The notes below the pieces were generated by a model. The model was not told where the DNA came from and did not search any database. It saw only the letters and a program-made list of their open reading frames with translations. From a virus, in IMG/VR virus record IMGVR_UViG_3300025683_000003: a DNA stretch of 64,000 nt; one strand, written 5' to 3'. Made by a program: the position numbers and the translations under genes. Positions within the stretch are counted from its first letter, which is position 1. Each line of letters starts with the position of its first letter. This document shows, piece by piece, positions 200 to 53,717 of this stretch.

Positions 200-600
200 T
201 TACAATGCAGGAATTATTAAAAGATGCTAAATTTGAAGATCAGTCACAAGAAATACAGGACAATTTAGTTGAATTGCTGGTTCGAATCAATAAGGTTCGT
301 GCTGCATATGGGAAACCTATGAATGTGACTTCTGGACTTAGATCAATGGCAGATCATTTACGTATTTATGCTCAAAAAGGTATCACAGATCAGTCTAAAA
401 TCCCAATGCAATCTAATCATTTATATGGACGTGCAGTTGATATTAGTGATCCAAACAGAGAGTTGCAGGCTTGGGTACTAAAAAACGTTAAACTCATGGA
501 AGAAATCGGGCTATGGATGGAAGATTTTGGCGCTACCCCGAACTGGCTTCACTTTCAGATTAATCCACCCAAATCTGGCAACCGATTTTTTAAGCCCTAA
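196..600 (+). CDS. Peptidase M15 family endolysin (Zn peptidoglycan peptidase)
   Basis: M15 motifs: vTSGlRs...SnHlyGrAvD (HxxxxxxD) and the C-terminal WLHFQ His. Confidence 0.85.
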   Translation: MITMQELLKDAKFEDQSQEIQDNLVELLVRINKVRAAYGKPMNVTSGLRSMADHLRIYAQKGITDQSKIPMQSNHLYGRAVDISDPNRELQAWVLKNVKLMEEIGLWMEDFGATPNWLHFQINPPKSGNRFFKP

Positions 601-654
601 GATCCCTTCTTATACTGTCTTCAACAGGCATATATAAGTATATAAGCGCCCTAG

Positions 655-686
655 TTCGCAGATCGTTCCTACGTTTGCGAATTTTT
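655..686 (+). terminator. Probable intrinsic terminator between convergent genes
   Basis: Hairpin TTCGCA-gat-CGT-tcct-ACG-tt-TGCGAA (655-681) followed by TTTTT, 55 nt after the endolysin stop. Confidence 0.5.
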
Positions 687-762
687 AATAAAACACTAAG
701 TGTCACCAAGCTCGTAATTGACGAGACTTCATCTGTCACCTCTTGCATATCAATAATTTGTC

Positions 763-996
763 TCATAATTTTACCTTAAACATCTGTGTAGCATTCATTT
801 TACCAGTTGCGTCTACGTTCAATCTATAGTTGACCTGAGTAAACATTCGGTGATTGGTTTTGTGGTAAATTTCATTTGATATTCTCCCTGCTTTTTCAAA
901 ATACGCATACGGATACTTATCTCTAAGTATCTCCCTAATGTCCTTAAACATTACCTCATCCTCTTTATAAAAGCTTATTGGTCTAATTAGTTTCAT
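763..996 (-). CDS. Small DL-motif family protein, array A
   Basis: 77 aa; ends VNYRLNVDA; 14-nt overlap with the upstream member. Confidence 0.7.
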   Translation of the reverse strand: MKLIRPISFYKEDEVMFKDIREILRDKYPYAYFEKAGRISNEIYHKTNHRMFTQVNYRLNVDATGKMNATQMFKVKL

Positions 997-1222
997 ACTT
1001 TTTTAAATCCTTTACTAACATACCCTCGACAGCCGTTGATATTCTACTGTGACCATACCCCCTACTTCCACCAGGCATCTTTATGAGTACGTCATTTATA
1101 GCACTTCTGTGTTGTGATGAGCGTGCTACGATACCAAACATATGTGAAATACTAAAGCCACACTCTTCCTGACTTATAATGTAAATCAAGGAATCTCTCA
1201 GTTCATCGTCTATATTTTTCAT
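983..1222 (-). CDS. Small DL-motif family protein, array A
   Basis: 79 aa; ends VEGMLVKDLKK; ATGA coupling. Confidence 0.75.
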   Translation of the reverse strand: MKNIDDELRDSLIYIISQEECGFSISHMFGIVARSSQHRSAINDVLIKMPGGSRGYGHSRISTAVEGMLVKDLKKYETN

Positions 1223-1434
1223 TTTGCTACCCCAATAATATCTAACTCCACTCTACTTTTTATAATATAGTGAATGTTATCAATCAAGCGCTTGTTTAAG
1301 TGAAAATAGATAATGTCATACTTTGTGTATTCTTGGTATTTAGGATACAGCTGTTTGGCAGTATTGTTTATTTCGTCAATACTCGTTTTATCATATATTA
1401 AATCATTTAGATAGTATGCTGTTATTCTAGTCAT
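1219..1434 (-). CDS. Small DL-motif family protein, array A
   Basis: 71 aa; ends IKSRVELDI; ATGA coupling. Confidence 0.75.
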   Translation of the reverse strand: MTRITAYYLNDLIYDKTSIDEINNTAKQLYPKYQEYTKYDIIYFHLNKRLIDNIHYIIKSRVELDIIGVAK

Positions 1435-1649
1435 TGTTTTTCCAATTTTTTGAGGTCAATCCCAGATCGAGCTATAACAACACGAGCTACGTATGCGTCA
1501 GTAAGTCTTTCGACCTTACGTATATATAGAGATAGATCGTGAGCTGCCGAGTTACCATTATAGTATTTTTTAAATTCTATTGTGTAATCTAACACCCTAA
1601 ACATTCCCGTGTAAGCTTCTTGTTCGAGGTGTGGATCAATTAGTTTCAT
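1431..1649 (-). CDS. Small DL-motif family protein, array A
   Basis: Probable start MKLIDP at 1649 (GGGGTG SD-like upstream); ends VIARSGIDLKK. Confidence 0.7.
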   Translation of the reverse strand: MKLIDPHLEQEAYTGMFRVLDYTIEFKKYYNGNSAAHDLSLYIRKVERLTDAYVARVVIARSGIDLKKLEKQ

Positions 1650-1851
1650 GTTTGGGCACCCCATTTAAGTCTATTTTTAGTCGTTCCTCTACAACTACTG
1701 AAACGTAATGATATATAGACTTCACTGGACTAAATATTTTCTCAAATACGTAAATATTTGTCGAGAGATTGAAGCGATAAATAGTAAGATCAGTTATATC
1801 TGCTTTGATTATTCTGTGCCTAGACTCGTTTTGAAAGCTTATATATCTCAT
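1636..1851 (-). CDS. Small DL-motif family protein, array A
   Basis: Probable start MRYISF at 1851 (ATGA overlap with the upstream stop); ends VEERLKIDL. Confidence 0.7.
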   Translation of the reverse strand: MRYISFQNESRHRIIKADITDLTIYRFNLSTNIYVFEKIFSPVKSIYHYVSVVVEERLKIDLNGVPKHETN

Positions 1852-2036
1852 GCTTGACCACCTAACTTCTCCAAATCTCTTATTATAGAATTTTGAGCAG
1901 CATACCATACCTTTGTCTCAATCTTATTATATAACTCCATATGTACCCTGATGGGAGATATGTAATGCTCAGTTGGCATCATATAGAGTCCGAGGGTAAT
2001 TCTTAATTCATATTCTCTCAGCATTATGAGTTGCAT
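1848..2036 (-). CDS. Small DL-motif family protein, array A
   Basis: 62 aa; contains ELYNKI and ends AQNSIIRDLEK; TAATG coupling. Confidence 0.75.
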   Translation of the reverse strand: MQLIMLREYELRITLGLYMMPTEHYISPIRVHMELYNKIETKVWYAAQNSIIRDLEKLGGQA

Positions 2037-2233
2037 TACTTACCCACCCTCATTAAATCATCTTTAATTTGGTCTTTTATATTGTAGCTTAAATATAAGT
2101 GAGTTTTATTGTACAGATCAAAACGCAGCGCACTGCTTACCTTGTGGATAGCCAAGTTGATTGTTAGATACATCAGCCTATCTTGCGTCATAACAACCAG
2201 AGATTCGTCTGTGAAAAATTGTATTCTTCTCAT
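2036..2233 (-). CDS. Small DL-motif family protein, array A
   Basis: 65 aa; contains LRFDLYNK and ends IKDQIKDDL. Confidence 0.75.
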   Translation of the reverse strand: MRRIQFFTDESLVVMTQDRLMYLTINLAIHKVSSALRFDLYNKTHLYLSYNIKDQIKDDLMRVGK

Positions 2234-2442
2234 CGTCCCACCAACTTTAAAGCCCTATGAACTTCATTTTCAAGCGTCTCATACAGATTTTCACGAGTTT
2301 TATAATGCAAAACATCAAACAAATACTCATTAACAATCCTAGACGCATGACCGCGTGATCCATCAAATTTCCAGACTTTCTTCATACACTCTAACGAAGT
2401 CATTTCCACCATAATGTCCCCTCCAAAACATATTAGCTGCAT
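2230..2442 (-). CDS. Small DL-motif family protein, array A (D replaced by A)
   Basis: 70 aa; ends LENEVHRAL; same size and coupling as its neighbours. Confidence 0.7.
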   Translation of the reverse strand: MQLICFGGDIMVEMTSLECMKKVWKFDGSRGHASRIVNEYLFDVLHYKTRENLYETLENEVHRALKLVGR

Positions 2443-2645
2443 TTTGTACTCTCCTTCTCAAGATCATGAGTAATGCGCGTGGAGATTATTTTCATTAGGT
2501 GATGAGTGTATCTGATTTCCAAGGTATGATAGATGTGCCAGGCGTTAACAGGGGTTCTGCCTTGTAAAACAAGCTCCACGATAAATTCTGGGAACGTAGA
2601 CTCGCTAATCTTCACTCTGTTGTTGATGCATCTGACAAATCTCAT
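2433..2645 (-). CDS. Small DL-motif family protein, array A
   Basis: 70 aa; ends ISTRITHDLEK. Confidence 0.75.
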   Translation of the reverse strand: MRFVRCINNRVKISESTFPEFIVELVLQGRTPVNAWHIYHTLEIRYTHHLMKIISTRITHDLEKESTKCS

Positions 2646-2845
2646 ATTGTCACCATCTTAAACTGTTTTAAATCCCTACAAATAGCACGACCAACTTCTG
2701 TTTTGAGATGGGTTGTTCTTTGATTAATTCTATTGTAAAATCTGCACATACTAGCTATTTTCATTGCAGGTAGGCTATCGCGAACAAAATAATCTGACAT
2801 CATAATGGTTGCTGATGTATGTGTATAAAAAGTCACTCTAGTCAT
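2642..2845 (-). CDS. Small DL-motif family protein, array A
   Basis: 67 aa; ends VGRAICRDLKQ. Confidence 0.75.
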   Translation of the reverse strand: MTRVTFYTHTSATIMMSDYFVRDSLPAMKIASMCRFYNRINQRTTHLKTEVGRAICRDLKQFKMVTI

Positions 2846-3063
2846 TTAATCCCCCTTTGTAACCTACGTAGATCGTTTGATACTGCCATACGCATTTCGT
2901 TACACACTTCTACACTCATCTTGGAATAAATTATATTATTCAATCTGATAAAGATCGCATTTCTATATATTCTCTCTGTTAGGGCCGCCCATTCTTGCAG
3001 TACTTCCAACTGCATTAACGTATACACTTCGTGTGAGGAGATGGATTTAGATGGGGTTATCAT
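2842..3063 (-). CDS. Small DL-motif family protein, array A
   Basis: 73 aa; ends MRMAVSNDLRR. Confidence 0.75.
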   Translation of the reverse strand: MITPSKSISSHEVYTLMQLEVLQEWAALTERIYRNAIFIRLNNIIYSKMSVEVCNEMRMAVSNDLRRLQRGIK

Positions 3064-3287
3064 ATATCCACCCTATATAGATCAGATCTAACCATACTCC
3101 AAACCTCTATTCTGAATTTACCTGTGATTGTCTCTAATTTATGCTCCATTGGACACATAAGTCTTGCTCCATTAAAAATATCACTTCCATAACATTTCCA
3201 TGGGCTATTTAGGGCTAGTTTACAAATTTCAAAGCCAAAATTGATATGTATCTTATCGTGGATAATGTGTGGGTGTAGGTATTTCAT
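3060..3287 (-). CDS. Small DL-motif family protein, array A
   Basis: 75 aa; ends VWSMVRSDLYR. Confidence 0.75.
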   Translation of the reverse strand: MKYLHPHIIHDKIHINFGFEICKLALNSPWKCYGSDIFNGARLMCPMEHKLETITGKFRIEVWSMVRSDLYRVDI

Positions 3288-3475
3288 TTATAAAAATTCT
3301 CCATATCTCTCATTACAGAACTTTTCAAAACCCTATAATTTTTATGCTCCATTATACCGACTTGTAACGCAATAAAGACACTACTTCCTGTATATAGATG
3401 GTGAGAGAGTGAACTTGGAATTATATTTTGATTAATTAACCACGTCGTCATGGTGAATTGATAATTAACCCTCAT
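3284..3475 (-). CDS. Small DL-motif family protein, array A
   Basis: 63 aa; ends LKSSVMRDM. Confidence 0.75.
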   Translation of the reverse strand: MRVNYQFTMTTWLINQNIIPSSLSHHLYTGSSVFIALQVGIMEHKNYRVLKSSVMRDMENFYK

Positions 3476-3675
3476 ACTTCCATCCCCTTCAAATCGCGCC
3501 CCACCTGTATTGTCACATTGTCAGCAATCTCTCGGGCTATCATATCATCTAATATATCAGATAGCAAGGTGTCTAATTTTAGACATAGGGCGTAGAACTC
3601 GTTTCTGCGGTACTGTTTGTAGCAGAAGTTATGAAGGTCTCGTGATGCAATTCCTGTTATCCAAACTTGCTTCAT
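3472..3675 (-). CDS. Small DL-motif family protein, array A
   Basis: 67 aa; ends VTIQVGRDLK. Confidence 0.75.
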   Translation of the reverse strand: MKQVWITGIASRDLHNFCYKQYRRNEFYALCLKLDTLLSDILDDMIAREIADNVTIQVGRDLKGMEV

Positions 3676-3863
3676 TGTTTAATCCCAGTAAGTTTATAAA
3701 GATCTTTACATAATTGCCGCTGTTTTGGATGGTATATTAGGGAGCCGTGAGCGTGTCCTACACAAAGTTTTATCTTATCAAACGCCCCACCTTCGTCTAT
3801 ATAGGTTATTACTTTATATGGGAGTGTCCTAGCGCAGACAAGACTAACATTTAACCTTTTCAT
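3672..3863 (-). CDS. Small DL-motif family protein, array A
   Basis: 63 aa; ends KQRQLCKDLYK. Confidence 0.75.
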   Translation of the reverse strand: MKRLNVSLVCARTLPYKVITYIDEGGAFDKIKLCVGHAHGSLIYHPKQRQLCKDLYKLTGIKQ

Positions 3864-4051
3864 ATGACACCCATTTTTGCCAAATCTAACCTAACAATGT
3901 TGTCAGTCTTTTTATGTAGATTGTAGTAGCATTTAATATACATTACGTCATCAACAAGACTCCATAGGAGTACATACGGCCTCCTATTTAGGATTTTTCC
4001 AGCATTCATGTCGTAAATATCCCATACGTTGGGTGGGAAAAGTTGGGTCAT
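3860..4051 (-). CDS. Small DL-motif family protein, array A
   Basis: 63 aa; ends TDNIVRLDLAK. Confidence 0.75.
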   Translation of the reverse strand: MTQLFPPNVWDIYDMNAGKILNRRPYVLLWSLVDDVMYIKCYYNLHKKTDNIVRLDLAKMGVI

Positions 4052-4236
4052 TTTATTAACATCCTATATAAATCCATCTCTACTCGATCTTCAACCCTGT
4101 GCATAAGATTGTGTTTCATCTTTTTAGTGCATTTTAGTCGCAATAATCTTATTACACGGCCTCGTATCCATGGCTCAACCAATTCAGAGTCGGGTACTAA
4201 GTGTGATGGCAAAAATCTTCTTCCAATATGGTTCAT
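4048..4236 (-). CDS. Small DL-motif family protein, array A
   Basis: 62 aa; ends VEDRVEMDLYR. Confidence 0.75.
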   Translation of the reverse strand: MNHIGRRFLPSHLVPDSELVEPWIRGRVIRLLRLKCTKKMKHNLMHRVEDRVEMDLYRMLIK

Positions 4237-4559
4237 TATTTATCGACAATATCGGTTAGTAGCAATTTAATCTTTTTAAGGGTCTTACCAGCCTTAGACG
4301 TTCCTGTTGGATTGTACACATTAAAATTAAAATAAGCCTCCTCCAATAGATCCAAAGCATTTTGCAGGTGTTGTCGATTGGCATCATTTTCTTTTTCAAC
4401 CAAATCAACTCGTCGCTCTAGATCTTTCAACTGCCCCTCAGTGATAGGCTGGCTTGGCGTGTTAACTCTGACACTATTAGAGGACGTGGTCATATTTGAG
4501 CTACAAATTGGGCACATATATTCGTGACTTGACCATCCGTGTAAATAGCAATGGAACAT
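4236..4559 (-). CDS. Hypothetical protein with an N-terminal Cys/His cluster and a coiled coil
   Basis: CxxH...CPIC N-terminus; GGAG SD; coupled to the downstream gene. Confidence 0.6.
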   Translation of the reverse strand: MFHCYLHGWSSHEYMCPICSSNMTTSSNSVRVNTPSQPITEGQLKDLERRVDLVEKENDANRQHLQNALDLLEEAYFNFNVYNPTGTSKAGKTLKKIKLLLTDIVDK

Positions 4560-7540: not shown

Positions 7541-7773
7541 TTTAAAGCCTCTTTATACTTGTTAAACAAATCTGTTGCCCACTCGCTACTATTCCTAGGA
7601 AATTCTTCATTACAATCAGGACATCTTAGGGCCACTAACCCATCATACACTCCAATATATCCACCGTCAATACCTATCTCACGCTTCCAATGAGTACCTG
7701 AGTAGTGGTGCGCTATATCTTCTGGTATTTTATCTCCTAACCATGAAGACTTACATTTAGGGCAATTGTCCAT
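7537..7773 (-). CDS. Zinc-ribbon hypothetical protein
   Basis: CPKC...CPDC. Confidence 0.65.
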   Translation of the reverse strand: MDNCPKCKSSWLGDKIPEDIAHHYSGTHWKREIGIDGGYIGVYDGLVALRCPDCNEEFPRNSSEWATDLFNKYKEALK

Positions 7774-7782
7774 ATTAGGCTC

Positions 7783-8217
7783 CTACAAGCTTATTTTGAT
7801 TGTGTGAAATGTTTTAGTTTCTATAGGGTCCCATACTACTTCTTTTTTAGTTGTAGTAAATATCCACATAAACTTATCTTCCACATCAATATATCTAGCA
7901 GAGTATTTTGTAGTGTACTCTTTTGGGGTAATTTCTACTTTATATCCAAAGTCTCTAAACTTATTTAAAAGATCTTCCCTACAGTATTTTGACTCTTGTC
8001 CATATGGAGTAGGAGAAAACGAGTGTTGAATCAGTCCGTTTGAATCTGTGTATTCCTTAACCTCTCTAGATCTCTCAAAAGGTCCTGTTTCAAAAGATCC
8101 ATATCTTTCAATGTGCCAGTAAATAGTTTCTACTGCACTTTCAAATTTAGAGGCTTCTTCTTTTGCCTTCTCTTCTTCTTTCTTCTTACGCATCTCATCT
8201 GCTGTTAATATTTTCAT
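7783..8217 (-). CDS. Hypothetical protein
   Basis: 144 aa; coupled to the upstream ORF. Confidence 0.6.
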   Translation of the reverse strand: MKILTADEMRKKKEEEKAKEEASKFESAVETIYWHIERYGSFETGPFERSREVKEYTDSNGLIQHSFSPTPYGQESKYCREDLLNKFRDFGYKVEITPKEYTTKYSARYIDVEDKFMWIFTTTKKEVVWDPIETKTFHTIKISL

Positions 8218-8423
8218 AACTCACCTTCAAATGTACTTGTATATACAGTCTCTCCGTTACCTTCATCATCATAATCTTCGATCACTCGCTCTGGAGGCTG
8301 CATTCCAGCGTTCTCAATTTCCTGTAGAACGTCAGATAATTCACTCTCGCTAAACTGGTAGTCTTGTGGTACTCGGCTATTTAAAATTTCTCCAAGCTTC
8401 GTAATCATCTCACTTCGTTTCAT
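8214..8423 (-). CDS. Hypothetical protein (MKRSEM family)
   Basis: MKRSEM...IENAGMQPP; paralog of 9329..9700. Confidence 0.65.
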   Translation of the reverse strand: MKRSEMITKLGEILNSRVPQDYQFSESELSDVLQEIENAGMQPPERVIEDYDDEGNGETVYTSTFEGEL

Positions 8424-10812: not shown

Positions 10813-11088
10813 CTAACCTCGCAATTTCTTTAGTGCATCACCTGCGCAATAATGACACTCTAACTCTGTTGTTGTTTCATCACCCTTTGTAGAAGCTTTT
10901 TGAATTCCTTCCAGAGCCTCGACAGCAATTAAAAGCTTTGCTTCCAATCTATCAATAATCCAATCTCTAGATTCTAGGTTATTCTCAAGCTCCTCCAATT
11001 CCATATATGCTTGTTCTAGATCAATCAAAAGGCATCTTGGACAATTATATTGCTGTGAAATTGTGTGACAATATTCTCGTTTACTCAT
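10813..11088 (-). CDS. Hypothetical coiled-coil protein (KLxxxxEAL family)
   Basis: N-terminal CH...CPRC plus KLLIAVEAL. Confidence 0.6.
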   Translation of the reverse strand: MSKREYCHTISQQYNCPRCLLIDLEQAYMELEELENNLESRDWIIDRLEAKLLIAVEALEGIQKASTKGDETTTELECHYCAGDALKKLRG

Positions 11089-11096
11089 TTAAACTC

Positions 11097-11576
11097 CTAC
11101 TTTCCAGACGATCCATAACCTTGGTCGCCTCGTTCAGTTGATGATAACTCATCTACTTCTACTAAGTCAATAGCTGGATATGGAATAATTAACAATTGAC
11201 AGATTCTGTCACCAGGATTGTAAGAACCTATATGACCAACCTCTAAATTGTATGAGTGATTCTCGTTAACTGTGTTAAATCTAGCAGTTATCTCTCCTCG
11301 AAAATTTGAATCAATCACTCCAACAGCATTCCCTAAGGTCATATTAGTTTTAACAATAGACGATCTTGGGAATATCAAGCCGACATATCCTTCTGGGATT
11401 TCAACAGCAATACCTGTCCCATACACATACTGACATTGATTGTTGACATACTCGATTTTTTTCGTCATAGCCGTTAAATCAATCCCTGCATCCCCATCTC
11501 GTGAATATTTTGGTGTTGGCACTCCACCCATTAACTTTTTAAACTTAACTGGCATCTTAGTTTGTGGATACTTCAT
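11097..11576 (-). CDS. dut: Trimeric dUTPase
   Basis: Motifs AGIDL, PRSS, GVIDSNFRG, GDRICQ and RGDQGYGSSG. Confidence 0.95.
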   Translation of the reverse strand: MKYPQTKMPVKFKKLMGGVPTPKYSRDGDAGIDLTAMTKKIEYVNNQCQYVYGTGIAVEIPEGYVGLIFPRSSIVKTNMTLGNAVGVIDSNFRGEITARFNTVNENHSYNLEVGHIGSYNPGDRICQLLIIPYPAIDLVEVDELSSTERGDQGYGSSGK

Positions 11577-11761
11577 ACTTTCTCCTTATTTTTAACATCT
11601 TTAAAGACCATATCATCAACTGTATCGTATAATCGTATTCCTATTAGTAGGAAAATTTTTAGCTCTATAACAATTGGATTAACCTTTGTGTGCAAAGAGT
11701 TCAGCATATTCTTCTTTAAATCAGAAAGGGTTTCCTGTAAGTCAAGTTGGATATTTTTCAT
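11573..11761 (-). CDS. Small DL-motif family protein, cluster B
   Basis: 62 aa; ends VDDMVFKDV. Confidence 0.75.
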   Translation of the reverse strand: MKNIQLDLQETLSDLKKNMLNSLHTKVNPIVIELKIFLLIGIRLYDTVDDMVFKDVKNKEKV

Positions 11762-11985
11762 GCCTTCCCACTCTTCATACTTACTCTTATCTCTTCTAAA
11801 TCTTTCATCACTTGCGAATCTACTGGCTCATAGACGTAGTCAACCAGCAGGCATCCAAGTTCTCCATTAAGTCCAACGCTATCTCTTATGGCTTGCTCAA
11901 CTCTTTTGTTTACAAAATCTGCAATTACCCTAATATTCATGACTGGTATGCTATCTAGATAAAGTTCCCACTCAAGGTTTCTCAT
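11758..11985 (-). CDS. Small DL-motif family protein, cluster B
   Basis: 75 aa; YEPVDSQVMKDL. Confidence 0.75.
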   Translation of the reverse strand: MRNLEWELYLDSIPVMNIRVIADFVNKRVEQAIRDSVGLNGELGCLLVDYVYEPVDSQVMKDLEEIRVSMKSGKA

Positions 11986-12193
11986 ACAAGACCCTATTCA
12001 TATCCCTTAAATCTTTCATAATTCCCATTTCTACAACTCTTGATATGTTATGTAAAATACGATCAGATACTCCTCCATAAATAATAATGTCTGGCTTTTC
12101 TATCAAATCTTCAAAATCATGCATCATCCATCGAATTTTATTATTAAATTGGGGTTTCATACTTTCCCATAACTGATTCTGTAAATTTTTCAT
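11972..12193 (-). CDS. Small DL-motif family protein, cluster B
   Basis: 73 aa; VEMGIMKDL. Confidence 0.75.
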   Translation of the reverse strand: MKNLQNQLWESMKPQFNNKIRWMMHDFEDLIEKPDIIIYGGVSDRILHNISRVVEMGIMKDLRDMNRVLYEKP

Positions 12194-12387
12194 ACAAACC
12201 TACTTTTTATATCAACCACTATCATTTGTGTGACTGGTAGTCTTAATTCCATTTCTCTTTTTTTAAGACCTATTTTTTCATATAAATCAAATCTCAATTG
12301 AATTTCAAGCAATTCCCTTGTAGCAACCCCAATATCTATATTCATTTTAGTGATGCTTCCCATTGAAATTTTACTAAGATTATTCAT
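12190..12387 (-). CDS. Small DL-motif family protein, cluster B
   Basis: 65 aa; LRFDLYEK and VTQMIVVDI. Confidence 0.75.
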   Translation of the reverse strand: MNNLSKISMGSITKMNIDIGVATRELLEIQLRFDLYEKIGLKKREMELRLPVTQMIVVDIKSRFV

Positions 12388-12590
12388 GATGGATTCACCT
12401 TTTTGAGGTCTCTTTCTAATTGATTGTATGTTTGTATATAAATGTGTTCATGTATTTTTTTAAAAATAATAGCGTATATTTTCCTAGAGATATGTCTATT
12501 TACTGGCTCAATACCTATGTCTAAATCTGCTATTCTATGTAGCGGACCATGATTATAATAAGATAGCAGATTAAGCTCTATTGGAATCAT
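12384..12590 (-). CDS. Small DL-motif family protein, cluster B
   Basis: 68 aa; TYNQLERDL. Confidence 0.75.
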   Translation of the reverse strand: MIPIELNLLSYYNHGPLHRIADLDIGIEPVNRHISRKIYAIIFKKIHEHIYIQTYNQLERDLKKVNPS

Positions 12591-12805
12591 TATGCGTTTT
12601 CCTTAAAATTAAGAAGATCTGAGTATGTTGAACTTTCTACCACACCAGAAACTTTTATTATTAACTTTTCACCTAGCAAAACATCTAAATATCCACATAT
12701 AGCTATTTGTTTATAGGGCGTAACTTTACGCATACTAAGAAAGGATACCAATTCTTCACGAACCCTACCTACATTTAATAGATACGCCACATTTCTCATA
12801 ATCAC
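12590..12805 (-). CDS. Small DL-motif family protein, cluster B
   Basis: 71 aa; VESSTYSDL. Confidence 0.75.
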   Translation of the reverse strand: MIMRNVAYLLNVGRVREELVSFLSMRKVTPYKQIAICGYLDVLLGEKLIIKVSGVVESSTYSDLLNFKENA

Positions 12806-13951
12806 CTAAAATAAGTCTAAAATTTTACCAAAGTCTGGATGAAAAGATCCTTCAGCAGTACGTAGCCACAAAACTGGAAACTTTGGCTTTAATGGAATGT
12901 CTGCTGGGTCCATATCAGTCACATAAACTGCAACGTCACAGCCTAGCTTTGCAGCCGCATCAAAGGCTGGTTGGTACAATGTTCCACCCCTTCCTTTAAA
13001 TCCGTTAAATTTTGCTTTTTTAAATTCATATGGAGGTTTTTGCACTGTTGCATCAGCTTCAATAACCCAAATCTCATAGCCAAGCTTTTCAAGCTTCACC
13101 ATCTCAGCAACGGCCATTTGCAGCATATCTTCAGACATAGAGCCTGATGTGTCTACAATAAAAGCAATTGTAGGTGTAAAAATACGCTTTTTACCAGGTA
13201 TTGTAAAACCATAGCGTCTATTTCGCTTATTTCTTGTAATTTTATAGCTATGATCAACAGCAGAGGTAATGTATCTTTTCATTACAGCTCTCCAGTCAAC
13301 CTTACTTTTCTTAAAACTATCAATAGTCAGATCAGCAATTCCTGGAATATCACCAGGGCCGCAATGCTTTCTTGCATTTTCTAAAATACCTACAGTGAGA
13401 GCTTTACCTAAGGTAGGGTTATCGTTACCCCAATCGTGTTCATCAAAATTGGGCATGCTAACAATTTTTTCTTGTAATTCGTTTTTAACTTGTTTCAAGT
13501 AATTGAAGTAGTATTCAGAAGTCTCATTCTCCTTGATGCTATTATCCTCACAGAATTTACGAAGACTATCAACTGTCCAGGGTTTGAATTCCCCTTCTTT
13601 TGGAAAAAGAACTTTAGCGTCTGTTAAAATTTCATGTATTGCAATGTCTTTCGCTATATTTGCAATCGTATGATCGTTTTTGTTGGGCAAACGCTCTCCC
13701 CCTAAATGCCCAAGGACAATGTGGGCCATTTCATGGCACACTACAAAGACTCTTTGTTCTGGAGTTAATTTTTCAAAAAACTCAGTGCCAATAGTCATGT
13801 GCACTGATGAGCCTTGTATCCTAACTCCAGCTGTGGGGAATTTTTTGTCAAAACCAACCTTTAGCTGCAATAATATATGTGCAAAATATTTATGTCTAGA
13901 CACAAGCCTAATGATTGTATCTTCATACATCGAACGAACTGATCTGGACAT
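12806..13951 (-). CDS. VWA domain protein with an N-terminal HExxH metallopeptidase-like domain (DUF2201-type)
   Basis: VCHEMAH; MIDAS DTSGSM; GRGGT; VYVTD. Probable start MSRS at 13951 with a GGAGG SD. Confidence 0.88.
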   Translation of the reverse strand: MSRSVRSMYEDTIIRLVSRHKYFAHILLQLKVGFDKKFPTAGVRIQGSSVHMTIGTEFFEKLTPEQRVFVVCHEMAHIVLGHLGGERLPNKNDHTIANIAKDIAIHEILTDAKVLFPKEGEFKPWTVDSLRKFCEDNSIKENETSEYYFNYLKQVKNELQEKIVSMPNFDEHDWGNDNPTLGKALTVGILENARKHCGPGDIPGIADLTIDSFKKSKVDWRAVMKRYITSAVDHSYKITRNKRNRRYGFTIPGKKRIFTPTIAFIVDTSGSMSEDMLQMAVAEMVKLEKLGYEIWVIEADATVQKPPYEFKKAKFNGFKGRGGTLYQPAFDAAAKLGCDVAVYVTDMDPADIPLKPKFPVLWLRTAEGSFHPDFGKILDLF

Positions 13952-13970
13952 AAATTCCTCCATTAATACA

Positions 13971-13999
13971 ATACTACACCAACAAGCATGCTTGGTCAA
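13971..13999 (-). promoter_or_regulatory. Sigma70-type promoter with a 12-bp palindrome in the spacer
   Basis: TTGACC-17 nt-TAGTAT; palindrome CAAGCATGCTTG at 13983-13994. Confidence 0.55.
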
Positions 14000-14211
14000 T
14001 TATCTTTATTTTTCGTTAGGTCAACTTCGACCATACTTTTTGTCTGATTATATACATGCTCTATTCTATGCTCAACAAGATATTCAAGCCTTTCCTCAAT
14101 CTCATCAATAATTTCAGATGAGGTGAGGCTAAGTAATCCGCTCCGAGGTCTCCCCCAGAGCAGGAAATTCATTCTTGTGTAGTCACGAAACTTATAGTTT
14201 AAGTTAATCAT
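13996..14211 (-). CDS. Small DL-motif family protein inside the AAA/VWA operon
   Basis: 71 aa; RLEYL and TKSMVEVDL. Confidence 0.75.
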   Translation of the reverse strand: MINLNYKFRDYTRMNFLLWGRPRSGLLSLTSSEIIDEIEERLEYLVEHRIEHVYNQTKSMVEVDLTKNKDN

Positions 14212-14217
14212 AATCCC

Positions 14218-14850
14218 TTAGATCTTTTGAAAGATAGTCTGTCCTAGGGGTGAATGGAATTTAGCACAAGCTTTGAGCCACTCTTCCTTCGTCATAGACT
14301 CACCCTCATAAGCATAGATTTCATATCCATCTCGATACTGTAGTGATGCAGTTTGATTTGCTGTTAATTTCCCATCTACAGAGTCTACATGGATCACAGA
14401 AGGGAAGTCACAGATAATGGCAGCTTCATCAAAAGTCCACAGGAAATGTAAGTGATGTGAGTGCTCAAGGAATTCGTTGAATAACGGGAACTCATCATTC
14501 TTCTCTGGAAATAAAACATGTAAAACATAGTCGTAGAATGCATAAGAACTCATCCACCAATTACTTCTGGCCATTTCGTAATACTCTAAAGTCTCACCTG
14601 GCTGCAAATTTCTGGCATCTACATTTCGAGCCAACTTATTACAAAGAATTTGCCCCTCTAGGGGAGATTGTACGATGTGGATTGGCGGTGTGGGTAAATT
14701 TAAAAGCTTAGTATAGATGAAGTCTACGGCTGCTTTTGCCTTTTCTACATCCATAGTCTCAGTTTTGTAGCCCAAGCTTAGCCATTTATTCAAATAAACT
14801 TCAATTTGTGCTTCTTGTTCTGGTGTTAATTTATCAATTACTTCGCTCAT
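14218..14850 (-). CDS. DUF6745-like protein
   Basis: N-terminal KLTPEQEAQI...KW...G...D.EKA..AV...Y...P.I..V.SP and C-terminal W.F...AIICDFP..IH.D...G.L......L.Y.DG..IY match the family as I recall it. Confidence 0.65.
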   Translation of the reverse strand: MSEVIDKLTPEQEAQIEVYLNKWLSLGYKTETMDVEKAKAAVDFIYTKLLNLPTPPIHIVQSPLEGQILCNKLARNVDARNLQPGETLEYYEMARSNWWMSSYAFYDYVLHVLFPEKNDEFPLFNEFLEHSHHLHFLWTFDEAAIICDFPSVIHVDSVDGKLTANQTASLQYRDGYEIYAYEGESMTKEEWLKACAKFHSPLGQTIFQKI

Positions 14851-14851
14851 A

Positions 14852-16105
14852 TTATGCCTCCTGGCTTTCTGTTAAGTTTTCTTCTTTATTTAATAATTCT
14901 TCAGTATCTTGCACATTATTATCAACACTGTCTACAACACTCTCACCCTCAGTAACAGCAACCTCAGACATTGCTGCTGGGTCTAGTGGAGCACTCTCGT
15001 CTTTAAATTTCTCATCAATCTTCTTTTGTGCCTCTTCACCTTGTTTGACCAACAAGTCGTCCATCTTGTTCTTTAATTTTTCAAGAAGACTTTGATTCTG
15101 CCCTAAGGTGTTGTTGATTGCTACTAAGCCTAAGCCTAAGATCTCCCGAGATGCATTAAACGCAATTTCAATAGGGATGTCTTGAAGGTACTTAGCTAAG
15201 TTGTCAGCCTGTGGCTGTGTTAGAGTGTTAGCAATCTTGATCTCCCGAATAATCTCTTCATTGATGATATTAATAACATCCAAATTATTCTCATATTTGC
15301 TTACTTCAGACGCCATCAATTGGTCATAGCCGCTCAAAACTTCTCTACCTCTAATCTTTTTACCGCTATACTTTCGGAAAGATAGGTATTTTACAGCCAT
15401 AGGTGTTCCAACAAGTCCTCGTACAACCTCAAATAGAGACTCCTCTAAGGGATTCGTTTGGATAAATGGGCTCACAAAATCGTGCCAGCTTCTTCGGAAT
15501 GGCTTCAATGTCGGCAAGTAGGAGACGGATGACTCCTCCAGACATTCTGGATTCTCATGGATAAAGGCTGTGACAGAATCATCTACACCGCTACGAACAG
15601 CATTCTCTAACCACTCTTCAACTGTTGGCTCAAGCGGGATATGGCACAGTCTAGATACAAGCGCCTCATCAGAGAAATCTCCGACAATAAATTGATCTGT
15701 TGGCGGATTTGCAAGAAGGATAAAATGCGTATCTTCTGGCAGAATATGTGTATGCAGCTTCTTATCTAAGATAAATGTCAACATACTTTGGATAATCGAC
15801 TTTGGCATACGATTAGCTTCATCAATAAGGATTAAATTTTTAGGCGTTTCTGGGAACCAGTCTGGGCGCAAATGTCGCACAGCATAATCGTTACCATCTT
15901 TGTCTTTCAGGGGGGATAATAGTCCAATAAGGTCGGAATTGTCTTCTACAGAAGCTAGGGTTAGGTATATAAAATTGTATCCCATATCCTTTGCAATCTG
16001 CTTAACAATAGATGTTTTTCCAATTCCAGCGCCTCCCCACAGCATTGTGGAAATTTTTGCCTTAAACAAGTTCGGTACAGTATTCTTAAACGTAGTGATA
16101 TTCAT
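14852..16105 (-). CDS. MoxR-family AAA+ ATPase
   Basis: Walker A GGAGIGKT, Walker B LIDEANR, ANP sensor, ALVSR Arg finger, RRSW; probable start MNITTF at 16105 with a GGAGG SD. Confidence 0.9.
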   Translation of the reverse strand: MNITTFKNTVPNLFKAKISTMLWGGAGIGKTSIVKQIAKDMGYNFIYLTLASVEDNSDLIGLLSPLKDKDGNDYAVRHLRPDWFPETPKNLILIDEANRMPKSIIQSMLTFILDKKLHTHILPEDTHFILLANPPTDQFIVGDFSDEALVSRLCHIPLEPTVEEWLENAVRSGVDDSVTAFIHENPECLEESSVSYLPTLKPFRRSWHDFVSPFIQTNPLEESLFEVVRGLVGTPMAVKYLSFRKYSGKKIRGREVLSGYDQLMASEVSKYENNLDVINIINEEIIREIKIANTLTQPQADNLAKYLQDIPIEIAFNASREILGLGLVAINNTLGQNQSLLEKLKNKMDDLLVKQGEEAQKKIDEKFKDESAPLDPAAMSEVAVTEGESVVDSVDNNVQDTEELLNKEENLTESQEA

Positions 16106-16125
16106 TAAATTCCTCCATTTTTTAT

Positions 16126-16154
16126 AAATTAACATTAAAAAAATAATTAATCAA
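16126..16154 (-). promoter_or_regulatory. Sigma70-type promoter
   Basis: TTGATT-17 nt-TAATTT with an extended -10 (TGt). Confidence 0.5.
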
Positions 16155-16158
16155 CATT

Positions 16159-16377
16159 TTATTTTCTTTGTATCACAATGATACTGCTTTCAATAGCATC
16201 TTGATATAATTGTTTATCAACTGGTTCATACAGACATCTTTCTGTTAAATAGTCAAGCTCTTCTTCCAGATCTGACGCCCTATCTAAGATTGCTGAGTAC
16301 AATACATAGTCTATATCATAATGAAATTCATTAAGACGGAGGATACGATTAATGTGCATCTGCTTCATTTGCTTCAT
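16159..16377 (-). CDS. Small DL-motif family protein upstream of the AAA gene
   Basis: 72 aa; YEPVDKQLYQD. Confidence 0.75.
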   Translation of the reverse strand: MKQMKQMHINRILRLNEFHYDIDYVLYSAILDRASDLEEELDYLTERCLYEPVDKQLYQDAIESSIIVIQRK

Positions 16378-16577
16378 TTGCTTCTCTTCAACACTTTAAA
16401 ATCGCGTTTTACTTGGGCATCTACCATATCTCCAATCATATATTCTAGTCGTAATTCAAATTCTATCCACAGTGGGTTTTCAATATGCACGTATATGATA
16501 TCTGTAATAAAGTCTATTGTCCTTCTGGGCCTTATATCTAACAATGACTGGAGATTTATTTGTTTATTTTGTTTCAC
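16374..16577 (-). CDS. Small DL-motif family protein upstream of the AAA gene
   Basis: 67 aa; RLEYM and VDAQVKRDF. Confidence 0.75.
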   Translation of the reverse strand: MKQNKQINLQSLLDIRPRRTIDFITDIIYVHIENPLWIEFELRLEYMIGDMVDAQVKRDFKVLKRSK

Positions 16578-17708: not shown

Positions 17709-18041
17709 TCATTGTGAGATGCTAGGGCAAATCTCAGCTAATTTCTGAAAGCATACATCAGCCTTTTTAGAGTACATAAGGCAATTTTGCCGAATCCCCT
17801 CATAGCAACCACTCACTTCTGAAGACCTGCGAGTATTCTCTAATTGCTGCGAGCAGTAGTCTCTAGAGGTATTGAGTTGTGTTTGGTAGTATTCAGTATT
17901 TTCTTTTTTCTCAGACTCAGCTTTTACAGAGTTAATTTTGAGGCTGATAGAGTAGGCCGACAGCGACAAGGCTAATGCCGCTGCAATGAATTCTCTATTT
18001 GTGAATTTAAAAAATTGACGTACCGACATACTCAGCTCCAA
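17709..18041 (-). CDS. Membrane-anchored Cys-rich exported protein
   Basis: N-terminal hydrophobic helix; five Cys in the C-terminal half. Confidence 0.55.
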   Translation of the reverse strand: MELSMSVRQFFKFTNREFIAAALALSLSAYSISLKINSVKAESEKKENTEYYQTQLNTSRDYCSQQLENTRRSSEVSGCYEGIRQNCLMYSKKADVCFQKLAEICPSISQ

Positions 18042-18219
18042 TTTTTGCTAAATTCCTTTTAAGTTTATTGAATTTTTTAGTTGATCCAATCAGGTATTTA
18101 GTCCGAGTTGTGACTCCATCATATGTTATGACGCCAGTATGATAATCGACAGTCATGAACATATTAAGATCGTCAATGTAAAAAATTGCCTCTACAGCTG
18201 TTTTCTTGTTTGTTTTCAT
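18007..18219 (-). CDS. Hypothetical protein, tandem paralog 1
   Basis: EAIFYIDDLNMFMTVD...G; homologous to 18249..18467. Confidence 0.7.
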   Translation of the reverse strand: MKTNKKTAVEAIFYIDDLNMFMTVDYHTGVITYDGVTTRTKYLIGSTKKFNKLKRNLAKIGAEYVGTSIF

Positions 18220-18248: not shown

Positions 18249-18467
18249 TTAAAAATTTGATGAGTTTATATATTTGATCCCTATTTTTGATAGGCATTTT
18301 TCAATTCGGTAAAAATCGTCTGATGATGAGATTGTAAATTTATAGAATGCCACCTTTCCATTATAGTTCACAGTTCCTTCTCTATGATCTATAGTCATGA
18401 ATACATTATGTACTTCGTCGTAGAATATGGCCTCCGCAGCAATTCTCTTCGATTTATTCCTTTTCAT
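18249..18467 (-). CDS. Hypothetical protein, tandem paralog 2
   Basis: EAIFYDEVHNVFMTID...G; both paralogs end KIG..Y. Confidence 0.7.
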   Translation of the reverse strand: MKRNKSKRIAAEAIFYDEVHNVFMTIDHREGTVNYNGKVAFYKFTISSSDDFYRIEKCLSKIGIKYINSSNF

Positions 18468-18469
18468 AA

Positions 18470-19090
18470 TTATTTCCTAACTTTCTTTTTTGGTTTTATT
18501 TGAAAATCTTCTTTTTTCATATTAATGGCCAAAGCCGTTGTTGCTGGTGGGTAGATGTGTCTAGGTACACCGATTTTATCAATGATACCCCATTTCAAAG
18601 CTTCCTCGGCTGACAGAGTCCAGTCGGCATTATCTCTATTTCGCATCTCCTGCTTAAATTTAGATGCAGCAATTCCGGTATCTCTACTGAGATTGTCAAA
18701 GATCGTTTCGTTTAACCCATGGATACTTTGCGCGTCAATAACAATGTCAGCAGTTTTTCCACCAGTTCCACCAGACACCTGGTGAATAAGGATTCTTGAG
18801 TCTGGCGTAGCAAAACGTAAACCTCTAGTTCCAGACGCCAGAAGGTATGCACCACAACTCATAGCTTTACCCATACAAATGGTAGATACAGGTCGGTCAG
18901 ACGATTTAATTAAATCTCTTTTGGCAATATAAGAGAAGACTTCTCCACCATATGAGTTAATAAACACAGGGATGACATTTACCATGGGGTTATTTTCCAG
19001 ATCAACGAAGGAGTCATAAAACTCCTGCACTGAGTGCGTGTCAAAGAGCGATACCCATACAGATCTTGGTTTATTTCTTTCATCAATCAC
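18470..19090 (-). CDS. clpP: ClpP-like serine protease (copy 1)
   Basis: INSYGG, AMSCG (Ser), ILIHQ (His), RD...LSAEEALKWGIID. Confidence 0.88.
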   Translation of the reverse strand: MIDERNKPRSVWVSLFDTHSVQEFYDSFVDLENNPMVNVIPVFINSYGGEVFSYIAKRDLIKSSDRPVSTICMGKAMSCGAYLLASGTRGLRFATPDSRILIHQVSGGTGGKTADIVIDAQSIHGLNETIFDNLSRDTGIAASKFKQEMRNRDNADWTLSAEEALKWGIIDKIGVPRHIYPPATTALAINMKKEDFQIKPKKKVRK

Positions 19091-51568: not shown

Positions 51569-51871
51569 CTAACTTAATGTCAACTCAGAATCTCGATCTG
51601 AGAATGACACTGTGATTTTAGATCCTTTATCGTCAGCATCAATCTTAAGGCGTCCATCTGTGGCTGCTTTCATTACAGCTGCTTTTAAAGATTTGGTATT
51701 CATTGGCTTTTTAGTCTGTTGGGCAATAATGCTAGATGTAAACTCATCAGCTTCTTTTTTACCCAAAACTAAAGCAGTAGGTAGACTCCCACTGCTTTTT
51801 AAAAATTGATTAATTTTAATGTCAATATTTCTTAAAATTTCCATACTCACTCCTAAAAAGGTACTTCCCAT
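51569..51871 (-). CDS. Hypothetical protein
   Basis: ~91-100 aa ORF between GroEL and the zinc-ribbon gene. Confidence 0.55.
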   Translation of the reverse strand: MGSTFLGVSMEILRNIDIKINQFLKSSGSLPTALVLGKKEADEFTSSIIAQQTKKPMNTKSLKAAVMKAATDGRLKIDADDKGSKITVSFSDRDSELTLS

Positions 51872-53658: not shown

Positions 53659-53717
53659 GTACAAAACTCCTACATTAACGGTTAATCTAATTACAAGTAT
53701 TACTAAGGGTTATGTTA

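Follow-up and report, generated by a model that had tools for sequence, protein, structure and literature searches.

MoxR-type AAA+ ATPases and vWA proteins form chaperone pairs with a dedicated client, as in CbbQ-CbbO with Rubisco, NorQ-NorD, RavA-ViaA and BchI-BchD. In this paradigm, the client is remodelled by the ATPase as one of its acidic residues is bound at the MIDAS of the vWA protein. We know of no client for the phage form of the pair. The phage pair of the N4 gp24/gp25 type belongs to the core genes of Schitoviridae and is known from group 2.2 jumbo phages as well (Iyer et al. 2021, PMC7824862). In cells, MoxR-vWA-centric ternary conflict systems have been described from multicellular bacteria (Kaur, Burroughs, Iyer, Aravind 2020, PMC7159879).

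The DNA analysed here (the window) is a stretch of 64,000 nt from a sludge phage, in which a module at 11573-16577 has all its ORFs on the minus strand (Table 1). The transcription order given in the first-pass annotation, with two small proteins (minis), MoxR AAA+, a DUF6745-like protein, one mini, the HExxH and vWA protein and six further minis, is borne out. The same annotation had proposed a candidate new system, which does not hold for the MoxR/vWA pair as this is of the N4 gp24/gp25 type, a MoxR with a zincin-vWA. The novelty lies in the family of the minis, the p4 minis described below, and not in the AAA/vWA pair.

Table 1. Positions of the module genes, the adjoining gene and the second array of minis in the window.
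Feature	Coordinates	Strand	Description
Mini 1	16374-16577	-	67 aa; N-cap MKQNKQI, C-cap KRDF
Mini 2	16159-16377	-	72 aa; YEPVDKQL word, cap QDA; weakest member
MoxR-like AAA+ ATPase (AAA_5), N4 gp24-like	14852-16135	-	427 aa; AAA_5/AAA match
Short DUF6745 protein	14218-14850	-	210 aa; PF20530 match; no period-4 repeat insert
Mini 3	13996-14211	-	71 aa; between DUF6745 and vWA; cap EVDL
Zincin (HExxH...H) + vWA/MIDAS protein, N4 gp25-like	12806-13999	-	DUF2201_N + DUF2201
Mini 4	12590-12805	-	71 aa; perhaps 69 aa from ATG
Mini 5	12384-12590	-	68 aa; top-scoring member, array-A (590-4236) profile E = 8e-9
Mini 6	12190-12387	-	65 aa; LRFDLYEK word, common to the 2036-2233 mini
Mini 7	11972-12193	-	73 aa; cap MKDL; best match of the independent p4-mini profile
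Mini 8	11758-11985	-	75 aa; YEPVDSQVMKDL
Mini 9	11573-11761	-	62 aa; stop overlaps dUTPase gene start
dUTPase gene	11097-11576		start overlapped by Mini 9 stop
Second array, 18 consecutive minis of the same family	590-4236	-	58-90 aa; stop/start codons mostly overlapping

The AAA+ protein scores 33.4 bits against PF07728 (Pfam cut-off 22) and matches phrog_1297 at E = 7e-49. Its Walker A (GAGIGKT) and Walker B (IDE, of the hhhhDE type) motifs are conserved in the alignment of 20 homologues (alignment A2), and it has an acidic C-terminal extension of ~70 aa which is absent from the relatives. The HExxH-vWA protein matches DUF2201_N (E = 3e-15; 56.9 bits, cut-off 23.2), DUF2201 (E = 2e-16; 60.9 bits, cut-off 26.4) and phrog_1314 (E = 5e-55). 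The ATG at 13963, giving 385 aa as in the relatives, is more likely to be its start than the TTG at 13999. Residues H77, E78, H81 and H86, D271, S273, G274 and S275, G326, G327 and T328, and D350 are invariant in 19 homologues, and the AAA/vWA machine looks intact since the HExxH...H and MIDAS residues are among them. The vWA domain forms the end of this protein (residues 278-396 of 397) and the N-terminal zincin is the sole fusion. In tblastn, matches to the vWA protein came from 183 phage records, with at least 80% of its length covered in 170; the annotations in the records are N4 gp25-like, metallopeptidase or, in error, HNH.

Besides the nine minis of the module (62-75 aa), a second array is located 8.5-12 kb away, at the distal end of the leftward block of genes, and the window therefore holds 27 minis (9 + 18) in place of the 26 counted earlier, with 18 of the 27 lying away from the module. 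The sequence of the second array is also present, identically, in a second run (L013). The minis are coding, as the annotated frame was the best of six by codon usage in 26 of 27 (p ~1e-19). When a profile was built from the second array only, eight of the nine module minis ranked directly below the training set among 912 six-frame ORFs (hypergeometric p ~1e-18), Mini 2 was at rank 30 of 912, and the mini profile scored with no other ORF of the window. phmmer found similarity for no pair of minis, so the family is detectable at the profile or motif level only. The minis had been taken as one family in the first-pass annotation, and this has been found to be real, with hyperdivergent members; the shared words YEPVDSQV/YEPVDKQL and RLEYL/RLEYM are likewise present. 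A motif h-x-x-x-h-x-(R/K)-D-(L/I/V/F) is found 7-14 residues before the C-terminus, and the Asp of this acidic cap is present in 26 of the 27 aligned minis. The starts include MKQNKQI, MKQMKQM, MKNLQNQL and MRNLEWEL, and the hydrophobic residues show a power-spectrum peak at 3.9-4.0 residues. Mini 1 is predicted by AF2 to be a helical hairpin, the long C-terminal helix of which (residues 35-66) has pLDDT > 94.

Judged by their sequences, the 27 minis are probably degenerate members of an undescribed and unnamed phage family, here called p4 minis, which we define by a length of 54-120 aa, a basic N-cap, period-4 hydrophobics and an acidic C-cap. The typical start is M-K/R-x-x-x-Q-I/L, the long helix takes the form, elsewhere in phages, of a plain xQLW/xDQL repeat with 12-nt tandem repeats in the coding DNA, and EDL, KDL/KDI, EEF and EET have been observed as caps. 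What was first described as a DL motif is this acidic C-terminal cap. The window minis (58-90 aa) have the size and the start of the family, with comparable starts in L040 (MKKRKQI), L033 (MKRREQI) and L088 (MTKHKQI), and comparable caps in L028 (KDI/KDL) and in L092, L106 and L082 (WEDL, REDL and WEDV). With a profile of 28 minis derived from a DNA scan, window minis were at ranks 1, 2, 3, 5, 6, 7, 10, 11, 14, 15 and 17 of 912 ORFs (p ~2e-14), the single E-values being weak (0.06-5) and HMMER E-values in general being inflated by repeat proteins. In hhalign, the window family and the L028 minis gave E = 9e-4 with a probability of 22%, and D-L was aligned on D-I.

The search of 1.84 billion representatives with the mini profile matched nothing but the minis of the window, the repeat inserts of three long DUF6745 proteins, and another three repeat proteins; the forward scores were 37-55 bits versus at most 13 bits for reversed or shuffled sequences. 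DUF6745 is a Pfam family of unknown function and no mention of it was found in the literature searched. The first-pass annotation had stated that DUF6745 proteins often carry a variable QV-rich helical insert which is nearly absent here. The statement is correct for a QV/QL-rich insert, and the window protein has ~27 residues in its place versus ~215 in P0029. The window protein scores 29.2 bits against PF20530 (cut-off 27), over residues 131-192 only, and aligns to residues 1-69 and 287-373 of the 487-aa P0029 (BLASTP E = 6e-10 for the N-domain and 8e-6 for the C-domain), skipping the ~215-aa period-4 repeat, the insert site being right after an invariant Ser-Pro (S62-P63). It has both conserved domains of the family without the repeat insert, a non-defining feature of many members (P0029, P0034, P0039, L031 and 24 IMG/VR contigs). 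Among its Atlas feature matches, 98 of 100 are DUF6745, mostly viral, and its AF2 model (pLDDT 79) gave no match in the PDB fold search. In the DNA examined, the long insert-bearing DUF6745 proteins mostly stand alone with no AAA/vWA nearby and the short forms sit in the module.

An unbiased scan of IMG/VR DNA with the motif W[DN]QLW[DN]QL gave 44 stretches, 24 of them inside DUF6745 ORFs; the motif was found in free small ORFs at nine loci, six of which also hold a DUF6745. Near-identical phages can differ in the number of repeats, by 164 aa between P0029 and P0055. The minis have the period-4 pattern in common with the insert, and these comparisons show, at the level of sequence, that the same repeat builds the p4 minis and the length-variable insert of DUF6745. 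A convergent origin can also be considered, in which the window minis would be unrelated amphipathic helical hairpins whose period-4 pattern the profiles happen to align with repeat proteins. In the window minis, tandem repeats are absent at the level of DNA, and only one of 27 passes the strict rule of four consecutive repeat units, so that the repeat is degenerate in them. Moreover, single domains on the DUF6745 inserts score no more than 10-18 bits, with the D-L always outside the match, the non-DUF6745 repeat proteins P0048 and P0052 were matched too, and the reciprocal phmmer test is circular. On the other hand, the L028 minis bridge the two types, as they combine xRLW repeats with the KDL/KDI cap, agree in size and start, and have homologous AAA and vWA genes on either side. 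The independent profile places the window minis on top in spite of its weak single E-values, EDL-type caps occur in L092, L106 and L082, and the gene nearest to the minis in the genome codes for a DUF6745. With these points weighed, convergence is considered improbable, and membership of the p4 family is the reading followed here.

The co-location of the minis with MoxR, vWA and DUF6745, as first proposed, is seen again in other phages, where the gene orders differ, but ~11 of the 18 near-clade lineages have the module without minis. In L028 the order is AAA, five minis, vWA and two minis; in L088 it is vWA, mini, AAA, two minis and DUF6745; in L033 it is vWA, minis, DUF6745, an unassigned 216-aa ORF, AAA and mini; and in L040, minis and DUF6745 are followed by a divergent AAA, vWA and three minis. 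Minis are found at the module in L017 and L008 too, and in L031 the order is AAA, vWA and a DUF6745 which bears the repeat itself. In at least six other phage lineages, p4 minis alternate with genes for AAA, vWA and/or DUF6745, the order of which changes from one lineage to another. Two or more such ORFs within 3 kb were found in 6 of 18 near-clade lineages versus 0 of 45 distant AAA/vWA loci (Fisher p = 3e-4), and the share of ORFs with at least four repeat units falls from 3.6% at up to 2 kb from a module gene to ~0.6% beyond 4 kb. No minis were detected within 10 kb of the module in L004, L006, L010, L011, L012, L029/30, L032, L034-L036 and L038. The L028 contig (82% complete) has minis and AAA/vWA with no DUF6745, and p4 minis and DUF6745 occur without a DUF2201 vWA in a complete 190-kb phage. 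Dependence of the module on the minis was rejected because of the lineages with the module alone, and dependence of the minis on the module because of the distant 18 and of the 190-kb phage.

Adjacency alone is weak evidence, as phage genomes pack small genes everywhere. The minis may therefore share only a location with the module, as lineage-expanded small accessory proteins of the early or host-takeover type, duplicated in tandem in plastic parts of the genome where the module happens to sit. This would suit the two thirds of window minis that are far from the module, the near relatives, most of which have the module and no minis, and the mini arrays of L082, L090 and L106, which are without the module in the DNA examined. 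Tight packing runs through the whole 53-kb leftward block, so that "operon" membership means little, and the promoter and terminator scans give no separate unit. Mere co-location is less easily reconciled with the interleaving in at least six other lineages with differently ordered module genes, with the lack of such arrays in 45 loci (~800 kb) having distant AAA/vWA pairs, and with a repeat that is physically part of DUF6745 in 24 IMG/VR contigs and in the module-borne DUF6745 of L031. Shared location only is, on the whole, somewhat unlikely.

The reading that we prefer, tentatively and at a little less than even confidence, is that the window minis are free-standing, trans-encoded counterparts of the variable helix of DUF6745, probably working with DUF6745 and, where present, with the AAA+ ATPase and the zincin-vWA adaptor. 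The minis may be in physical contact with these proteins. By analogy with the MoxR-vWA model, they may act as clients, adaptors or substrates, with the peptidase perhaps cleaving the minis or their cargo. Docking by the DL helix, and a role in counter-defence or host takeover which none of these results shows, are hypotheses of the first-pass annotation. The near-invariant Asp may have a part in this recognition; the minis of the vWA-less 190-kb phage retain the acidic cap, so that the cap cannot be solely for a vWA MIDAS.

Virion assembly could be a different purpose, with the MoxR/zincin-vWA as assembly chaperone and processing protease and the repeat helices of minis and DUF6745 insert as structural, spacer or scaffold elements of variable length which it assembles or trims. 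For the pair of group 2.2 jumbo phages, a function in virion assembly together with peptidolytic processing is proposed by Iyer et al. 2021 (PMC7824862), who cite the MoxR-vWA tail-assembly case of ATV, and the gp24/gp25 homologues of roseophages are near a second structural module (PMC4193335). Tail/lysis genes on one side and portal/terminase genes on the other flank the module in L004 and L006, and variation in repeat number, as between P0029 and P0055, is typically a trait of rulers or exposed fibres. In the window, L010, L011 and L012, on the contrary, the module is among genes of replication and nucleotide metabolism (dUTPase, ThyX, ERF, DnaB), N4 gp24/gp25 are middle genes, and 27 different 65-aa paralogues are hard to fit in a virion. 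Virion assembly is accordingly held to be clearly unlikely. Through the recurrent position of p4 minis among its genes, a common but unexplained phage ATPase/protease-adaptor pair gains candidate partners.

In comparison to N4 gp24/gp25, the window pair has the same two domain architectures, adjacent and co-oriented, with HExxH and MIDAS intact, whereas the identity is only ~25%. The window phage differs from the N4-like phages: it encodes GroEL, ClpP and a 1571-aa PolA, and no giant virion RNA polymerase was seen. LUZ7 likewise has a small gene between its gp24-like and gp25-like genes. The third gene of the window module is a DUF6745, unlike ORF38 of LUZ7. Arrays of repeat minis were found only in the AAA clade of the window and in none of the 45 distant-clade loci. 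In CbbQ-CbbO-type pairs, an AAA+ ring works with a vWA adaptor that binds an acidic residue of the client, and the minis offer one near-invariant Asp in otherwise free sequence. One client is served there, whereas the phage adaptor carries a peptidase, the window phage has 27 candidate clients, and the acidic cap persists in a phage without the vWA protein. The ternary conflict systems (PMC7159879) have effectors fused C-terminally to vWA, whereas the phage-borne window protein has its vWA C-terminal to the zincin, with no variable effector domain after it. In the Pfam scan of the three module proteins, VMAP-C, iSTAND, FtsH and beta-propeller domains were absent and bpMoxR scored 15.4 bits, below the cut-off of 27. 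The ternary systems and the window nevertheless have in common a MoxR and vWA core with a third conserved protein. Small multi-copy co-factors (tandem DUF397) are found beside some of these systems, and their VMAP consists of an N-terminal domain and a conserved alpha+beta C-domain with a hypervariable all-alpha region between them, which is the same layout as that of DUF6745.

The window has a GC content of about 36% and carries every gene between 53.6 kb and 0.6 kb on the minus strand. The gene order and domain calls of the first-pass annotation were found to be correct from the ORFs, Pfam and PHROGs. An identical copy of this phage contig occurs in three studies of activated-sludge or digester metagenomes, and a sequencing-run search found it absent from RNA runs. 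Promoter and terminator scanning showed no excess over shuffles, and cultured phages yielded no megablast match to the region. The phage encodes GroEL, SbcC, a 1571-aa PolA, ClpP and a sigma-like protein and is not N4-like; its protein-quality-control set (ClpP, GroEL, MoxR AAA+ ATPase and zincin-vWA) is unusually full.

Features of the MoxR/DUF6745/vWA region in transcription order, followed by two protein-quality-control genes of the same phage
Feature	Coordinates	Strand	Remarks
Mini 1	16374-16577	-	first in transcription order
Mini 2	16159-16377	-	second in transcription order
AAA+ ATPase, 427 aa	14852-16135	-	Pfam AAA_5/AAA; PHROGs phrog_1297
210-aa protein	14218-14850	-	Pfam DUF6745
Mini 3	13996-14211	-	between DUF6745 and vWA genes
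Zincin-vWA, 397 aa or more likely 385 aa	12806-13999 or 12806-13963	-	DUF2201_N (HExxH) + DUF2201 (vWA-like); phrog_1314
Six minis	12805 down to 11573	-	after vWA gene
dUTPase	after last of six minis	-	ends listed transcription order
ClpP	18470-19090		PF00574, E = 2e-35
GroEL	51853-53664

The probable start of the vWA gene is the ATG at 13963, giving a length in line with the 382-389 aa of its relatives; the alternative TTG at 13999 would run into mini 3. The AAA protein is longer than its relatives (345-373 aa) owing to an extra C-terminal tail of about 70-85 residues (14852-15110), strongly acidic, rich in Glu, Asp and Ser and present in no relative. Two adjacent paralogues of 70 and 72 aa (18007-18219 and 18249-18467), not related to the minis, were the sole pair from an all-against-all phmmer comparison (E = 1e-15). 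An M15-family peptidase gene (likely endolysin; 196-600, +) is the sole plus-strand gene at the left end, and a homologue adjoins the AAA/DUF6745/vWA module in two other phage contigs (L004 and L006).

The small helical proteins of the window, here called minis, form one family. Pairwise phmmer detected no similarity among them. In a MAFFT alignment, 27 small ORFs share their start and, towards the C-terminus, the block V-x-x-x-h-x-(R/K)-D-(L/I/V/F), with the Asp present in 26. Eighteen of them lie one after another in a second array (590-4236), and the M15 peptidase gene comes directly beyond its last mini. A profile built from this array alone placed eight of the nine minis at the module in ranks 19-26 of 912 six-frame ORFs, straight after the 18 training sequences (p about 1e-18), and no further window ORF scored. 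Non-coding DNA repeats are ruled out by a codon-usage model of the long genes, in which the annotated frame beats the other five in 26 of the 27 minis, and by the lack of DNA-level tandem repeats inside the minis. With the family alignment, AF2 predicts a helical hairpin with a long C-terminal helix (pLDDT above 94). Foldseek against the PDB returned zero matches to this model, an Atlas feature search with a window mini gave nothing usable, and a word-indexed search with the mini alignment recovered the window's own proteins only. A sliding-clamp-binding motif was dropped on inspection only, as QLxDQL does not fit QL[SD]LF, and a C-terminal degron for the phage ClpP was dropped as the extreme C-termini vary. 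Where minis 1 and 2 meet, the 9-nt unit CATTTGCTT is repeated in tandem (3.1 copies, 16357-16384); this repeat encodes the mini 2 start MKQMKQM, a minor sign that repeats drive change at the N-cap.

The variable insert of DUF6745, described in the first-pass annotation as nearly absent here, is real. Residues 1-69 and 287-373 of a 487-aa DUF6745 protein (P0029, from the database search; L014 8001-9464) have counterparts in the 210-aa protein, which lacks the approximately 215 residues of 4-residue repeats in between, the insert site being directly after the invariant Ser62-Pro63 of a 15-sequence alignment. In the Atlas it groups with DUF6745 clusters, which are mostly viral. No PDB counterpart of its AF2 model (pLDDT 79) was found by Foldseek/VIA-align (best Z 3.9), tblastn against cultured phages gave no match, and the literature search found no paper on this family. 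A module-borne DUF6745 at another locus (L031), 38% identical to that of the window, carries a 75-aa SQLY/SQLR repeat. Another protein, P0055, is 100% identical to P0029 over the 201-residue C-terminal region compared, and the two differ by 164 residues in length (323 vs 487 aa), the gap lying in the repeat insert (alignment A6). Hence the repeat expands and contracts between near-identical phages, a sign that the locus adapts rapidly. As a protein-search query the P0029 C-domain retrieved only this length variant, so independent DUF6745 inserts were taken from a DNA motif scan. In the contig stretches examined, long insert-bearing DUF6745 genes are mostly without AAA/vWA genes nearby. Intein/LAGLIDADG insertions are present in large genes of related contigs, namely the terminase in L004 (18694-21074) and a 664-aa protein in L014 (712-2706).

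The minis share this repeat with DUF6745, and the likeness proposed in the first-pass annotation holds up. Searched against 1.84 billion representatives, the mini profile retrieved 21 window minis, three repeat proteins of other kinds and, matched within the inserts, three long DUF6745 proteins. The insert matches are weak taken alone (10-18 bits per domain, alignments ending before D-L), and repeats inflate such E-values. The match is direction-specific, with 37-55 bits forward vs at most 13 bits for reversed or shuffled sequences; the hydrophobic periodicity of the window minis has its peak at 3.9-4.0 residues, not at 3.6. On relatives, DUF6745 repeats were the sole matches of a C-terminal-block profile. 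A reciprocal phmmer search with DUF6745 inserts, which ranked the minis top, was discounted as circular.

An independent line of evidence came from scanning IMG/VR for DNA encoding W[DN]QLW[DN]QL, with no module gene used as reference. Among 44 stretches, 24 fall within DUF6745 ORFs, and the motif occurs in free 64-121-aa ORFs at nine loci, six of which have DUF6745 and four AAA and vWA genes. A profile of 28 scan-derived minis placed window minis at ranks 1, 2, 3, 5, 6, 7, 10, 11, 14, 15 and 17 of 912 ORFs (p about 2e-14), their single E-values being only 0.06-5. Convergent similarity between the minis and the DUF6745 repeat is improbable. The acidic caps stand at the very end in some lineages (WEDL, REDL and EEDL in L092 and L106) and take the forms WEDVDD (L082), REEFNND (L090) and REET (L116) in others; an acidic cap is therefore general, and the basic residue plus DL of the window is one of its forms. 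We call this wider family p4 minis (54-120 aa, period-4 helix, basic N-cap and acidic C-cap). Pfam has no family for minis of the type found at locus L033, and the nearest Atlas clusters of an L033 mini are all viral, with 56-201 members, and consist of hypothetical proteins of 65-96 aa. At DNA level the L033 minis consist of 12-nt units repeated in tandem, with 10-17 copies each. These repeats (3980-4362, 7634-8288 and 11069-11268) are open in several frames on both strands and can yield shadow ORFs in gene calls (GTSLGTS or GPTMGPT peptides).

The genomic association of minis with the module genes recurs in other phages. AAA homologues of 46-60% identity were found on metagenomic contigs of 36-94 kb. 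L004 and L006 have a compact operon of AAA, DUF6745 and vWA genes followed by 3-5 unrelated small genes, and L011 and L012 have a DUF6745-like gene, AAA, vWA, small genes and dUTPase. In L010 (AAA, DUF6745, 74-aa gene, vWA) the small gene was rejected as a mini (hhalign probability 0.3%), so the position between DUF6745 and vWA is not conserved as a mini. In the lineages of P0010 and P0009 the module genes are rearranged, with many 54-94-aa genes between and around them; small ORFs of the P0010 lineage (3-kb piece) gave the top but weak mini-profile matches (hhalign probability 26%). Single-protein scans of IMG/VR gave two distant loci at most, or none, and close relatives were absent from two metagenome-contig scans.

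With the AAA alignment as query, 54 loci were retrieved from IMG/VR. The nearest, L028 (135-kb contig, 47% AAA identity), has AAA, five genes of 73-82 aa, vWA and two more small genes; the small proteins start MRxL/MNN-like, carry xRLW-type 4-residue repeats and end in KDI/KDL, and hhalign matched the window family to them with E = 9e-4, placing D-L on D-I. In other lineages the minis have plain xQLW/xDQL repeats behind a basic start, and their acidic ends differ from lineage to lineage. The order is vWA, minis, DUF6745, 216-aa ORF, AAA and mini in L033/L037, with further minis upstream; an MKKRxQI mini array, DUF6745 and then, divergently, AAA, vWA and three minis in L040/L041; and AAA followed by two minis in L017. 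The motif scan added L088, a lineage missed by the AAA scan, with vWA, mini, AAA, two minis and DUF6745. At least two such ORFs lie within 3 kb of a module gene in 6 of the 18 lineages with an AAA close to that of the window, against 0 of 45 loci with distant AAA/vWA pairs (about 800 kb; Fisher p = 3e-4). The first-pass observation is confirmed and extends well beyond the region.

The association is partial. A complete 190-kb phage (L082 contig) has p4 minis and DUF6745 without the DUF2201 vWA, the L028 contig (82% complete) has minis and AAA/vWA without DUF6745, minis are missing beside the module in about eleven near-clade lineages, and 18 of the 27 window minis sit 8.5-12 kb off the module. 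These partial co-occurrences indicate a network of frequent association rather than an obligate operon. That the minis are merely co-located with the module is somewhat unlikely. That they work jointly with DUF6745 and/or the AAA-vWA machine is our tentative reading, a little short of an even chance.

The AAA/vWA pair itself, offered in the first-pass annotation as a candidate new system, is already known. Using tblastn the vWA protein matched 183 cultured-phage records at about 25% identity, with at least 80% of vWA covered in 170, and named matches are 'N4 gp25-like' or metallopeptidase. In LUZ7 a gp24-like gene (AAA protein) is followed by one small ORF and the vWA homologue. N4 gp24/gp25 are middle genes (PMC4193335), and the MoxR and metallopeptidase-vWA pair is known from group 2.2 jumbo phages, with a proposed role in virion assembly and processing (PMC7824862). 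It is a core pair of N4-like phages, present in many others, and virion assembly is the sole function proposed for it in print. A structural or assembly role of the minis, in keeping with that proposal, is rather improbable. The HExxH...H and MIDAS residues (DxSGS, GGT, D) are invariant in 19 vWA homologues, and the catalytic and MIDAS motifs are intact as judged from sequence. Many cultured-phage records and PHROGs (phrog_1314) label this zincin-vWA family 'HNH endonuclease', which its DUF2201_N and DUF2201 content does not support.

In MoxR-vWA pairs an acidic residue of the client is held at the MIDAS of the vWA adaptor while the AAA+ ring remodels the client. By analogy, the best candidates for clients, adaptors or substrates of the AAA-vWA machine would be the minis and, acting in cis, the insert of DUF6745; the fused zincin may add cleavage. 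A more specific version, in which the p4 minis are exchangeable trans-acting adaptors of a diversifying phage system for targeted remodelling or proteolysis (host takeover or counter-defence), is a long shot. Here the variable half of each mini would grip a different host or phage protein, the vWA MIDAS site or DUF6745 would serve as docking site for the conserved acidic cap, and the MoxR ATPase with its fused zincin would remodel or cut the delivered protein; the DUF6745 insert would be a cis-encoded form of the adaptor in other phages. The acidic cap is kept in a phage without the vWA protein, which speaks against a purely MIDAS-directed role.

The first-pass interpretation has stood in part: the DUF6745 insert and the mini likeness hold and the co-location recurs, and the AAA/vWA pair is not new. 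What is new here is the family of p4 minis and its link with DUF6745 and this pair. It gives a name to a common kind of phage 'ORFan' mini-gene, and p4 minis, inside DUF6745 or free between ATPase, adaptor and DUF6745, are concrete, testable partner candidates. VMAP-C, iSTAND and similar defining domains of MoxR-vWA ternary systems are absent from the window module, which is therefore not classed as such a system. In DUF6745 a hypervariable all-alpha middle separates the N-domain from a conserved alpha/beta C-domain, a layout that parallels VMAP, the third component of the cellular ternary systems, some of which also carry tandem small co-factors (PMC7159879).
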